Source: Alphaproteobacteria bacterium (GTDB taxonomy: Bacteria; Pseudomonadota; Alphaproteobacteria; CAAHEQ01; UBA3637). Taken from it: a stretch of DNA of 40,701 bases. Position 1 is the stretch's first letter; each line of letters opens with the position of its first letter. The notes beneath the pieces were generated by a model, which ran no database searches, had not been told where the DNA came from, and saw nothing but the letters and a program-made list of their open reading frames with translations. Below are positions 15,734-18,697 of the stretch, in pieces. The stretch is taken from positions 1 to 40,701 of the forward strand of contig JAZRBO010000004.1 in the NCBI GenBank assembly GCA_045635125.1, read 5' to 3'. The translations under genes were made by a program, and so were the position numbers.

Positions 15734-16912
15734 ATGCATCATCATCATACACCAAAAGATCTTACCGGCGGCGAACGGTATTTATTTAACCGTAAAGAAG
15801 GGCATGAAAAAACATTTTACACAAATAAAGATGTCGCTCCCTTTTCACGGGTACGTATTTCTCTTCGGGATTTAAAAAAAGGCCCGACACCAATACCGGT
15901 TTCTTCATGTATTGTTAAAAATTTCATGAAACAATTAGCTAAAAACGGAACACTTTCAAAGGCTGGTTTTTCCGTAGAAGATATTATGCTTGCCCAAAGT
16001 GAAGGACATGTACCGGAAGGATTTACTGTTGAACAAATCGTTCCTGGTGGATGTGGCGCTCGTCCAACACCAAATAATTTATGCTTAATGGAAAAGGGGG
16101 TATCAGAATACTTGATGCGTCATTTGTGGCGGTATTTTCATCAGGATTTACAGGCAGAAAAAACTATTTGTGAAAAAAAGGGAAAAGCGTTTGAGCAAAT
16201 CACTATCACTTTATCTGGTTTTCAATCAGTGATGCGGATAAATGACTGGAAAAAAACATTAGATAAGTCATTATTACGTCGCTCAAAAGAAGTAGAAGAA
16301 AAACTCAAAATACAAAAATTAAAGGAAATGGATTTAACAGTTTTATCAACAAATAATTCCGTTTTTCTAGCACATCCGGCCTTTTTAGAAACAAATAATG
16401 GTTTTTTCAGTAATTCTTCTGGTTTAAAGCCGGCTATTATCAACGTCCGACTGACTTCATCATCCGAGCAACAAAAATTAAAATTTGAATATGCTGAAAA
16501 ACGTCGGGATATCATCCGCACAATTGCGGGTCAAGGTAAGTTGCCAGAGATTCGTTTAGATAAGCAAAAAGATATTGCCTCAAGTGGATGGCTTCCCAAA
16601 AACTATGCCTATACTTGTCACCACGTTGTTCCTCGTGCTTTAGGTGGTAATAACGATGTTGAAAATATGTGTTGGTTACAAGCTTCTGATCATGCTCATC
16701 TCCATATTATTGTCAATCGGTATCAACATGAATTAAAAACAAATTACAAGGACTTAGCAACACGAGGGGATGCATACTTATTATTGCCGGTGCCAGCCTC
16801 ATTCAATGGCCCACAATTACGTGTTATCTCCCCATTTGATATGAAACTTGTTTGCCATTGCCATAAAAAACACGCCAAACAAAAGATTGATTTATCCCAT
16901 ATTCACATGTAG
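15734..16912 (+). CDS. Hypothetical protein with one intact HNH (AHH-like) nuclease module and one degenerate copy
   Basis: 392 aa. Residues 291-324 read YAYTCHHVVPRALGGNNDVENMCWLQASDHAHLH (HH..P...GG.ND..N....H...H). Residues 78-135 form a related module lacking the HH pair. Its stop TAG overlaps the AGGAG of the next gene. Confidence 0.7.
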   Translation: MHHHHTPKDLTGGERYLFNRKEGHEKTFYTNKDVAPFSRVRISLRDLKKGPTPIPVSSCIVKNFMKQLAKNGTLSKAGFSVEDIMLAQSEGHVPEGFTVEQIVPGGCGARPTPNNLCLMEKGVSEYLMRHLWRYFHQDLQAEKTICEKKGKAFEQITITLSGFQSVMRINDWKKTLDKSLLRRSKEVEEKLKIQKLKEMDLTVLSTNNSVFLAHPAFLETNNGFFSNSSGLKPAIINVRLTSSSEQQKLKFEYAEKRRDIIRTIAGQGKLPEIRLDKQKDIASSGWLPKNYAYTCHHVVPRALGGNNDVENMCWLQASDHAHLHIIVNRYQHELKTNYKDLATRGDAYLLLPVPASFNGPQLRVISPFDMKLVCHCHKKHAKQKIDLSHIHM

Positions 16913-16921
16913 GAGAACCTA

Positions 16922-18697
16922 ATGCCCAAAAAATCACTAACACAGGAAGATAAAATTTTTCATTTTTCATTTCCATCAGGAAATGAACCCGTTGTTTCAC
17001 AAAAAATTCAAGGGGGCACTTTATTGGCCGCTCGTGTTCTAGAAACAATGTTTATGGGGGCTGATTTAATTCCGATGGTCATAGAGGTTAATCCCACCCT
17101 ACCCCGTTATTTATATAATAAAAACAAATCCTATTTTGAACAAAATAAAAATTTGCTCAGAAAAAAATATGCCCAAAAATATCCTTTACCATCCTTAACA
17201 ATCGACAGTATCAGACAAATACAGGAAACAGGGGAAATGCCACCGCATTATCCTTACACCTGCCACCACTTAGTCCCATTACGCTGGGGCGGTCGAAACG
17301 ATATTCGCAACTTAATTTTCTTAAAGCACGATATCCATCAGGCGATTCATAAAATAACGGATGCATATATTGGTTTTTTATCTCGTCAAGATATGTCTCA
17401 AAACAAAGAAAAACGCATCTTTTTAGTTTTTCCGATGCCAGCTCGGTTTAAAGGTCCCGAACTGCGTATTATACATGAAGACAAGGCATTAACCGTCCAA
17501 GAATGGAAAGAAGTACAAGACATGGCTGAAGCCGTGAAATCCGGCATTCCCTCTCCCCAAACGATTGACCAACTCAATCGAGCAATAGATGGGGAAGAAT
17601 CATTCTTTTTAACTTATTTCAGAAAAAAATATGCGAAAATAGCCATTCCGGGAAAAATTCGTTCAGATAATGTCGCTATGCACAAACTATCTGCTAAAGA
17701 GGCTAAACCAACCTTAGAATTAGAATTAACACCGGCGGAAACTTCCGATTTTTTAAAAAGTATCAATGTTTCCCGATACACGCATGCCAACTTGTTTTCA
17801 CAACAACAATGGGAAGAGTTTCAAAAGGGTTGTATTCCGACGGGATTCAGTATTATGCCAGCCATTCCGTTTGATTCCCCAAAATATGAAAACAGAATGC
17901 GCACATTAATATCCCATGAGGCAAAAGATTTATTGAAACGGATGTTATGGGATCCTATTTGGAGACAGATACAAAAACTACGCAAAACCGTTAACGATAT
18001 TGATATTCAACGGTATCATTGGCCAAAGGTTATCACTTTAAAACAAGCGCAAGAATTTATAAATGATAACCATCAGGAGGCAAAACTCAAAAAATCCCGA
18101 TATCAAATGAGTGAAGCTCGGGAACAAACCCATATTACTATTAGCAAAAATCAGAATGGTACTATTCTGTACTTAACGAACCATCCTTTTGTTCATCAAG
18201 ATGGAGACATATATACTCTTGATACAACCAAGATCTGTTCTTTTGCACCAGGAAAACCACCAATCAAAGAACCGGATATTATTCGTAATCTGTGCAAACG
18301 GGACGCTTTTCGTTTAAAAAATGTTAGTCGTCCAGAAAAGTTACGCATTGAAAAACAACAACGCATTCCGGACTCTTTGGGATTAGAAGCTCGTTTCCTA
18401 ATTCCGGAAGAATGGGGTGGCGATGTTTCTGCCGACAACGCTTTATTTGTAAAAAAAGATATTTACGCGTCATATCATCGAACCGTTTTAATGCCCTTAG
18501 CCCTGTTTCTGAGCAAACAAAACCTAGGACGTTTTATACAGGTAGCCTTACCCAAACCGCTAGATGCCTACCTACCCGAAAGCGAAGTCAAAGTTATTAA
18601 ACCCAAAACACCCCCCACCCAGGTTCGTCGATTAGCTTCCCGCCACAACCGTCGTCAAAGCAAAATAGACCTACGTAAAGAATGGCAATATAGCTAA
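16922..18697 (+). CDS. Hypothetical protein, paralog of the preceding gene: one intact HNH (AHH-like) module plus two degenerate copies
   Basis: 591 aa. Residues 110-143 read YPYTCHHLVPLRWGGRNDIRNLIFLKHDIHQAIH. Degenerate modules lie around 290-375 and 478-550 (RFLIPEEWGGDVSADNALFVKKDIYASYH). AGGAGAA lies 4 nt upstream of the ATG. Confidence 0.7.
   Translation: MPKKSLTQEDKIFHFSFPSGNEPVVSQKIQGGTLLAARVLETMFMGADLIPMVIEVNPTLPRYLYNKNKSYFEQNKNLLRKKYAQKYPLPSLTIDSIRQIQETGEMPPHYPYTCHHLVPLRWGGRNDIRNLIFLKHDIHQAIHKITDAYIGFLSRQDMSQNKEKRIFLVFPMPARFKGPELRIIHEDKALTVQEWKEVQDMAEAVKSGIPSPQTIDQLNRAIDGEESFFLTYFRKKYAKIAIPGKIRSDNVAMHKLSAKEAKPTLELELTPAETSDFLKSINVSRYTHANLFSQQQWEEFQKGCIPTGFSIMPAIPFDSPKYENRMRTLISHEAKDLLKRMLWDPIWRQIQKLRKTVNDIDIQRYHWPKVITLKQAQEFINDNHQEAKLKKSRYQMSEAREQTHITISKNQNGTILYLTNHPFVHQDGDIYTLDTTKICSFAPGKPPIKEPDIIRNLCKRDAFRLKNVSRPEKLRIEKQQRIPDSLGLEARFLIPEEWGGDVSADNALFVKKDIYASYHRTVLMPLALFLSKQNLGRFIQVALPKPLDAYLPESEVKVIKPKTPPTQVRRLASRHNRRQSKIDLRKEWQYS

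Follow-up and report, generated by a model that had tools for sequence, protein, structure and literature searches.

The stretch of DNA analysed here in full, referred to below as the window, comprises 40,701 nucleotides (40.7 kb) of contig JAZRBO010000004.1 from an uncultured member of the Alphaproteobacteria and carries, between dnaE (12189..15608) and thrS (18786..20711), two open reading frames (ORFs) whose products contain HNH nuclease motifs and which we call A and B. Judged by their sequences, A and B are diverged paralogues of an undescribed tandem-repeat HNH family that is limited to a clade of uncultured Alphaproteobacteria. Here, a module that carries the full set of catalytic residues is termed live, and a module that has lost them is termed dead. 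Both flanking genes, like A and B themselves, are read on the plus strand, and the features of the interval are as follows:

15668..15695, plus strand: candidate promoter-like site ahead of gene A (TTGTCA-16-TATATT, a TG preceding the -10 element), scoring 10/12
15734..16912, plus strand: gene A, an ORF of 392 amino acids (aa), predicted canonical member of the tandem live/dead HNH family
16910..16924, plus strand: A-B coupling junction, the TAG of A lying inside tAGGAG, then the B ATG at 16922
16922..18697, plus strand: gene B, an ORF of 591 aa, a canonical two-module body to which an extra predicted live module is fused
18705..18761, plus strand: thrS promoter, TTGACT-17-TATAAT (18705-18733), then a 12-bp-stem hairpin (18734-18761)

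A first-pass annotation, made from the letters of the window, had described A and B as two same-strand, translationally coupled ORFs of 392 and 591 aa, and both the coordinates and the coupling are borne out: the TAG stop of A (16910-16912) overlaps the AGGAG (16911-16915), which is separated by 6 nt from the ATG of B. A short gap between the two genes, of 4 or 9 nt, is kept in three related lineages (L001, L011 and L017; lineages are given by such L numbers, and related proteins by P numbers, where they need to be told apart). The 88-bp gap between B and thrS is too short for a small downstream immunity-like ORF, in agreement with the first description, and no ORF fits either this gap or the 125-bp gap between dnaE and A.

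The pair had also been proposed to lie behind its own promoter-like element. While a site scoring 10/12 is present before A, sites as good as this one are not enriched over shuffled sequences (7 found versus 10 expected), so that only the presence of the element stands. Behind B, the near-consensus thrS promoter begins 8 nt past the stop codon, directly after the pair as originally described, and a perfect 12-bp-stem hairpin follows immediately. The same promoter-plus-hairpin layout precedes thrS in L001, L006, L011, L012, L015 and L017, with differing stem sequences that appear to covary and, across lineages, often with a T-run behind the hairpin. This hairpin may be a terminator of the HNH operon that overlaps the transcription start of thrS, or a leader element of thrS; a search of Rfam returned no match in or around the locus, hairpin included. 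Because this conserved layout follows the last HNH gene, thrS is probably transcribed on its own, and the promoter and hairpin would separate the A-B operon from it. Co-transcription with thrS was considered as a cause of the linkage and is ruled out by the near-consensus promoter of thrS and the intervening hairpin.

Live and dead modules in A and B

Comparison of the two proteins by BLASTP confirmed that they are paralogues, with A 229-365 aligning to B 47-184 at 32% identity (E=3e-21) and a second, weak alignment between A 90-324 and B 302-519 (E=2e-4). A residue table likewise upheld the proposal of a single intact HH...N...H module per protein (residues 291-324 in A, 110-143 in B), and in both proteins this module is followed by a common strand motif. 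The shared module is larger than the roughly 90 aa first ascribed to it: profile alignment over 116 columns gives a repeat unit of about 120-135 aa. When the profile of the N-terminal half was aligned to that of the C-terminal half with hhalign, the two matched at 99.3% probability (E=5e-20, 116 columns), which marks the protein as a tandem duplication within one chain. The modules and tails are arranged as follows, all on the plus strand:

15839..16228 (A residues ~36-165): degenerate N-module of A, with E100-Q101 in place of His-His and P104, G108 and N115 kept
16415..16819 (A residues ~228-362): intact HNH module of A, core at residues 291-324 (nt 16604-16705)
16829..16909: basic C-terminal tail of A, ending in ...KKHAKQKIDLSHIHM, at low model confidence (predicted local distance difference test, pLDDT)
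17060..17482 (B residues ~47-187): intact HNH module of B, core at residues 110-143 (nt 17249-17350), of probable A-type C-half origin
17456..17596 (B residues ~179-225): linker from the added module to the body of B, pLDDT <50 at residues 179-190 and 206-225
17672..18016 (B residues ~251-365): N-module of the B body, strongly degenerate, with M-P in place of His-His and GG and Asn lost
18203..18553 (B residues ~428-544): C-module of the B body, catalytic site lost, with R491-F492 in place of His-His and Tyr in place of the next His; GG and Asn kept
18620..18694: basic C-terminal tail of B, ...RRLASRHNRRQSKIDLRKEWQYS, predicted to be helical

In A, whose putative catalytic residues are H296, H297, N311, H320 and H324, the arrangement is canonical for the family, with a predicted dead N-module, a live C-module and a basic tail. 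An in-frame loss just before the basic tail (…KLV|SVTELT…RYRMLV|C…) has shortened its tail region by 36 aa compared with its closest relatives; the missing segment is kept in P0003, P0004 and P0005, which comprise a 95%-identical relative and more distant orthologues.

The equivalent residues of B are H115, H116, N130, H139 and H143, and they lie outside the part of the protein that corresponds to A. Residues ~231-591 of B align over their full length with the canonical family, specifically with a B-type branch marked by HPF and RRDAxxLK motifs and a ...RRQSxxDL...EWQY tail. The live module at residues ~47-187, on the other hand, best matches A-type C-halves (32-37% identity) and reaches only ~25% identity to B-type C-modules. 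The B-type protein next to the A-type one in L011 and L017, at 378-382 aa, lacks such an N-terminal extension and has an intact C-module. From these matches and the shorter B-type proteins, we infer that B is a rearranged derivative, which in the lineage of the window gained a copy of the live module of the upstream A-type gene and thereafter lost the site in its own C-module. The extra live module is found only in orthologs of B, and among the family the C-module site is lost only in the B body; the ortholog P0002 has R-C at the position of R491-F492, where B-type relatives retain HH.

A single active site per chain has thus survived the rearrangement of B, and of the evidence gathered here this speaks most strongly for selection on catalysis. 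This observation bears directly on the view that A and B reuse the HNH fold without catalysis, as nucleoid-associated or regulatory DNA-binding proteins. Consistent with such a role, the proteins are very basic, most of their modules are dead, and relatives are co-operonic with a PhoB-like regulator in some lineages. Every family member, however, holds a full catalytic set (His-His, Asn, His, and His or Asn), and the re-supply of this set in B after loss of the original site argues for selection on catalysis, such that we consider a purely DNA-binding role highly improbable.

Structure prediction agrees with the module assignments. An AlphaFold2 model of A built with the family alignment (mean pLDDT 85, predicted template modelling score, pTM, 0.70) contains two copies of a strand, helix, helix, beta-beta-alpha, strand arrangement; in the live module the two core strands and the helix fall at residues 293-297, 312-316 and 317-337 (pLDDT 88-95), and the dead N-module is still modelled as beta-beta-alpha (strands 97-101 and 116-120, helix 123-148). 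The model of B (mean pLDDT 75.6, pTM 0.42) has three beta-beta-alpha modules, a disordered linker at residues 179-225 and a helical tail; its live module is modelled with strands at 112-116 and 131-135 and a helix at 136-155, and the degenerate N-module of the body with strands at 309-313 and 327-331 and a helix at 332-353. A beta-beta-alpha-metal fold is accordingly the predicted fold of the live modules in both proteins.

An HNH family upstream of thrS

Word-indexed searches of 5.8 billion proteins returned only two or three close relatives each for A and B, all of them unnamed, and repeating the search with the family alignment yielded nothing beyond these close orthologues. With a profile of the module, an exhaustive HMMER search identified 253 proteins at E<=1e-3, among which is a coherent set of ~360-430 aa that can be aligned end to end with A and that no source names; two further relatives, more remote and mostly of a single module, bear just the name ‘HNH endonuclease’. 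Members of the coherent set share a canonical architecture, consisting of a short N-terminal beta region, a dead N-module, a C-module with the full catalytic set and a basic tail, and are built from a repeat unit of ~125 aa with a strand, two helices, the beta-beta-alpha-metal core and a further strand. His-His is found in none of 22 N-modules, which retain the fold-defining Pro, GG and Asn, and His-His, GG and Asn are found in all 21 C-modules of canonical relatives, 20 of which also have the next His. A distant relative, P0017 (339 aa, metagenomic), has two nearly identical intact modules (WYEIHHI[IV]PR…), and tandem forms with two live modules thus exist as well, outside the core family. 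No Pfam or NCBIfam model describes the family, and a full-text literature search (HNH with type IV secretion effectors or Holosporales; tandem, inactive or degenerate HNH) found no account of it; nor did the literature searched on tandem or inactive HNH domains contain a live/dead tandem within a single polypeptide. Sample names suggest that the hosts come from human and ruminant gut metagenomes.

We compared the gene order upstream of thrS among related lineages:

L001, L002, L004, L005 (sister species, uncultured Alphaproteobacteria, metagenome-assembled genome): dnaE, A, B, thrS
L003 (near-identical to the window; threonyl-tRNA synthetase, ThrRS, 98%): dnaE, A, B, thrS
L011, L017: virB4-virB3 divergent from A-type, B-type, thrS
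L012, L015: virB4-virB3 divergent from a single B-type gene, thrS
L006: uvrA divergent from a B-type gene, thrS
L018: fba, rpe, PhoB-like response regulator, A-like gene, thrS
L020-L022: response regulator, membrane protein, four single-module paralogues (three live, one degenerate), thrS
L008, L013: A-like gene behind a regulator; thrS elsewhere

The A-B pair therefore lies directly upstream of thrS in a sister species, and members of the family occupy this position in six further lineages, spanning ThrRS identities of 81-95% among the first lineage group and 55% to L018. Copy number, at one, two or four to five family genes before thrS, and module fusion vary among these loci, and the dnaE flank alone is lineage-specific. 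In the window and in L001, the GC content at third codon positions (GC3) of A and B is in line with that of the host genome. Because the position upstream of thrS recurs across lineages and GC3 is native, the family is, as far as gene order and composition can tell, an old resident of this position that was present before the lineages split. These data do not support the suggestion of the first-pass annotation that the pair is a lineage-specific insertion, and synteny and GC3 rule out a recent horizontal insertion. That annotation had also named, among the outcomes that would speak against its view, the same pair occupying the dnaE-thrS interval throughout the order with a known housekeeping function; this holds only by half, as the position is conserved and no known function is attached to it.

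In L020, another Alphaproteobacteria metagenome-assembled genome (3487-10032; also in L021 and L022; GCA_017513365.1), a 236-aa multi-pass membrane protein and four single-module HNH paralogues lie between the gene of a PhoB-like response regulator and thrS, three of the paralogues (259, 204 and 173 aa) having an intact His-His and one (245 aa) being degenerate, which amounts to an unfused version of the locus. In L008 (7319-9119), L013 (7324-9077) and L018 (5320-7164), an A-like gene begins 4 nt behind, or overlaps, the stop codon of a PhoB-like regulator of the OmpR family, which suggests that the two form an operon; these regulators score 289-300 against TIGR02154 (cut-off 296).

While the position of the family is stable, its sequences are not. 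Relative to two related lineages, the protein identities of window genes are as follows:

Window versus L001: ThrRS 91%, DnaE 91%, A 58%, B 50%
Window versus L011: ThrRS 87%, HPF 86%, PtsN 79%, radical-SAM protein 57%, A 28%, B 27%

Divergence of A and B is thus several-fold above that of the neighbouring core genes. The ratio of non-synonymous to synonymous divergence (dN/dS) relative to L003 is 0.10 for A, 0.11 for B and 0.024 for thrS. By these measures, A and B are real and constrained genes, among the fastest-evolving in the region and apparently under purifying selection, and such a fast-but-constrained profile is unusual for housekeeping DNA enzymes and common for defence, effector or selfish genes. 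Synonymous divergence from L003 is uneven over 15734-20711, at 0.07 for B, 0.21 for A and 0.32 for thrS, which hints at recombination within the locus.

A selfish origin would be one explanation for such a profile, in which A and B are a pair of free-standing homing endonucleases that persist beside thrS by cutting alleles without them. Free-standing HNH homing endonucleases of phages classically occupy intergenic niches beside highly conserved genes, and A and B lie in intergenic space beside very conserved genes; in addition, the top matches in PHROGs and BFVD are homing endonucleases, and the uneven synonymous divergence, with its hint of recombination, would be compatible with such an origin. 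Against this, none of the related lineages seen, a small sample, has an empty locus, divergence roughly tracks the host, and some family members lie away from thrS (L008, L013). Purifying selection and the retention of one active site per chain through domain rearrangement likewise speak against selfish persistence. Furthermore, searches for mobile copies found none: tblastn of A against plasmids gave no match, a search with the module alignment recovered no relatives in viral contigs or JGI metagenome contigs, and tblastn of A against annotated phage genomes matched only the 49-residue catalytic core, weakly (E=8e-4), in homing endonuclease genes of Klebsiella phages. We therefore regard a homing pair as very unlikely.

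The window is core chromosome, with rne, an amidase gene, rnhB, ccrM, dnaE, thrS, rho, miaA, cysS, gidB-parAB and xseA. Two adjoining small ORFs on the minus strand at 11177-12035 (152 and 128 aa) have hydrophobic stretches that suggest membrane proteins and match no family; the 152-aa ORF, near dnaE, shares only 32% identity with the corresponding L001 protein, versus 91% for the adjacent DnaE, and is thus very fast-evolving too. A MazF/PemK-like type II toxin gene lies on the minus strand at 25429-25734 (Pfam PF02452, E=4e-17). The sign of the GC skew flips at ~34750-35150, between cysS (minus strand) and a dnaQ-like exonuclease gene (plus strand), and gidB-parA-parB (36460-38744) lies just downstream of this flip, such that the window may be near a replication origin.

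HNH type, basic tails and secretion

The intact modules had first been likened to the AHH/SHH/GHH-type HNH domains of polymorphic toxins. We searched PDB sequences with a family-module profile, built from the intact module of A, B and orthologues, and the best matches were Cas8f-HNH (5e-6) and a group II intron maturase (1e-4), followed by IscB, pyocin AP41 and McrA. In Pfam, A and B score 16.0 and 16.6 bits against HNH, below the cut-off of 21.4, and HNH_5 and HNH_2 are also sub-threshold; the relatives P0009, P0015, P0022 and P0026 exceed the PF01844 gathering score (24-29 versus 21.4 bits). Because the family profile matches Cas8f-HNH and other classical domains and distant members pass PF01844, the live module is assigned by sequence to the classical, PF01844-type HNH domains and not to the AHH-type toxin domains.

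Indeed, a Pfam-A hmmscan of A and B at E<=10 returned HNH, HNH_5, HNH_2 and DUF6822 only and no AHH/SHH/GHH model, although very weak matches may escape the HMMER filters. Ten relatives gave only HNH-type matches in Pfam, along with sub-threshold noise (Tdi1_C, DsrD). Several further candidates were set aside: matches of A or B to IscB, FevR and DUF6822 in the Pfam and NCBIfam scans were judged to be noise, as were those to Tdi1_C (a type VI secretion immunity family), which fell weakly on live and dead HNH-like segments alike and reflect the motif level. The NCBIfam scan of A and B returned nothing meaningful, PADLOC assigned neither to a defence system and found only weak mREase_IV matches in relatives (E ~0.002, on the HNH core), and PHROGs contained only generic HNH or homing endonuclease families.

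As in the classical HNH domains of McrA, Cas9/IscB, Cas8f-HNH and the group II maturase En domain, His-His ends the first strand of the core and is accompanied by GG, a structural Asn and a distal helix His, within a predicted beta-beta-alpha fold in the live modules of A and B. Unlike many PF01844 members, the family has no CxxC zinc-finger pairs, and, unlike classical HNH domains in general, its core is embedded in a ~125-aa repeat with extra flanking helices and strands and occurs as tandem live and dead copies in one chain. With Foldseek, the whole models had no global match (A against PDB and BFVD, B against PDB; best E 0.03-0.2, template modelling score <0.15); local matches were to HNH domains, the best being the Rhs2-CT toxin 9t38 (probability 0.93), together with Cas8-HNH and the Gme HNH nicking endonuclease 4h9d.

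The local match to Rhs2-CT is among the points in favour of A and B being AHH/SHH/GHH polymorphic-toxin nuclease domains whose delivery and immunity partners were lost or never present. Like those toxins, A and B have a small module of the HNH/EndoVII fold with an xHH motif, the xHH-x2-P...GG...N pattern is alike by eye, and the PDB profile search includes a sub-threshold match to an Rhs-family protein (E=1.1). The structural similarity is weak and local, however, and the best sequence relatives of solved structure are classical HNH domains. Unlike polymorphic toxins, the family has no profile match to these domains, no N-terminal delivery, repeat, PAAR or RHS region and no adjacent immunity gene: Pfam and NCBIfam revealed no Rhs/CdiA/PAAR-type delivery domain in A or B, no conserved small ORF stands behind family genes in the thrS-linked loci examined, and neither toxin architecture nor an immunity gene was seen in the lineages examined. 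A stable, core-like chromosomal position, native composition and purifying selection are also at odds with this origin, which is largely refuted and which we give hardly any credence.

Both proteins end, as first described, in basic tails that share K-I-D-L. The last 30 residues carry a net charge of +4 in A and +7 in B and of +2 to +9 across the family, compared with a mean of +0.3 (standard deviation 2.6, maximum +5) for 32 other ORFs of the window. Whole proteins are also basic, at +18 for A, +26 for B and +8 to +33 for the family. Tail sequences are conserved only within sub-lineages (e.g. ...DLRKEWQYS and ...NLRAEWQYA, the latter being the C-terminal end of the L011 B-type protein, the counterpart of the B tail) and poorly family-wide. 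Inspection of the N-termini found no signal peptide in A or B, and Pfam and NCBIfam showed no recognisable delivery domain, both in line with the original description. A basic tail fits DNA binding and a VirB/D4-type secretion signal alike.

We therefore weighed whether A and B are type IV secretion effectors, that is, nucleases or nickases exported by a VirB/VirD4-type system into host or competitor cells, with the basic C-terminal tail as translocation signal and possibly as nuclear-localisation signal too. In Alphaproteobacteria, the C-terminal signals of VirB/D4 substrates are positively charged, and the family resembles such substrates in its charged tails, in motifs at the extreme C-terminus that are kept within sub-lineages, in the lack of a Sec signal, delivery domain or immunity gene, and in quick, lineage-specific divergence with paralogue arrays, as in effector families. 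Moreover, the locus is divergent from virB3-virB4 in four related lineages (L011, L012, L015, L017), and the best local structural match is a toxin domain. The basic tail is nevertheless not specific, given that the whole proteins are basic, and its sequence is not conserved across the family. Unlike known VirB/VirD4 substrates, the family has no known effector domain (BID, ankyrin repeat), and no vir gene or other type IV secretion gene was found in the 40.7-kb window; uvrA, dnaE or a PhoB-like regulator are the neighbours elsewhere, and virB adjacency may be plain synteny. Finally, a promiscuous DNase without immunity would endanger its producer. On balance, export of A and B as effectors seems to us unlikely, though clearly more plausible than a toxin, homing or non-catalytic role.

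A possible nuclease pair and its significance

Our own leaning, held with moderate confidence, is that A and B are two endonucleases of the cytoplasm, each with one active site, that probably act as an A-B heteromer. Each chain would be a pseudo-dimer that holds and orients DNA through its dead module and its N-terminal domain and cuts one strand with its single live module. Translational coupling could lead to A and B being made in fixed proportion, and an A-B heteromer, with two active sites, could cut both strands. The activity would be directed at a particular site, structure or DNA modification and would take place in the bacterium's own cytoplasm; a specific, intracellular activity is most likely because there is no immunity gene and the locus is stably inherited. 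Restriction-like defence or DNA processing would fit this behaviour better than indiscriminate toxicity.

In concept, such an enzyme pair is like asymmetric nucleases derived from dimers, examples of which are the Gme HNH nickase (4h9d), the monomeric tandem-repeat LAGLIDADG homing endonucleases and heterodimeric restriction/nicking enzymes such as BbvCI and Nt.BspD6I. These also consist of two homologous halves, joined in one chain or in a heteromer, only some of which are catalytic, and cut in a strand-specific manner, as A and B are presumed to do, and the Gme HNH nickase is itself among the local structural matches of the models. No sequence-level kinship to these enzymes is seen past the HNH core.

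Several observations weigh against a cytoplasmic A-B pair. Nicking, heteromer formation and target specificity are predicted from sequence and models, and A and B themselves fall under the Pfam HNH cut-off (16.0 and 16.6 versus 21.4 bits). Several lineages (L006, L012, L015, L018) have a single gene, and a partner is therefore not obligatory. Housekeeping DNA enzymes usually evolve far more slowly, and the usual setting of defence genes is a variable island shared with unrelated systems, unlike this locus of one family. Secreted effectors would account equally well for the fast divergence, the paralogue arrays, the basic tails and the position beside virB3-virB4 in four lineages.

A broader and more speculative proposal, which we think improbable at present, is that the thrS-upstream locus is a cassette that diversifies in situ and supplies gut- or host-associated Alphaproteobacteria either with type IV-secreted nickase or nuclease effectors or with an immunity-free, self-contained, restriction-like defence made of live/dead HNH heteromers. 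If the effector cassette were real, the dead HNH modules would be interchangeable units for recognition of DNA or another target, and one live module per chain would produce a strand-specific cut in host or competitor DNA, with no immunity protein needed.

Taken together, the catalytic domain of A and B is a known one, and their tandem live/dead packaging, the conservation of a single site through module exchange and the fixed locus upstream of thrS appear to be undescribed. The family would provide a natural example of symmetric nucleases turning asymmetric and strand-specific, and it might yield compact nickases whose recognition is modular. For the organisms themselves, a poorly known group of uncultured Alphaproteobacteria, it represents a fast-evolving locus fixed beside thrS, and if its proteins are secreted or defensive, this locus would be informative on the interactions of the group.

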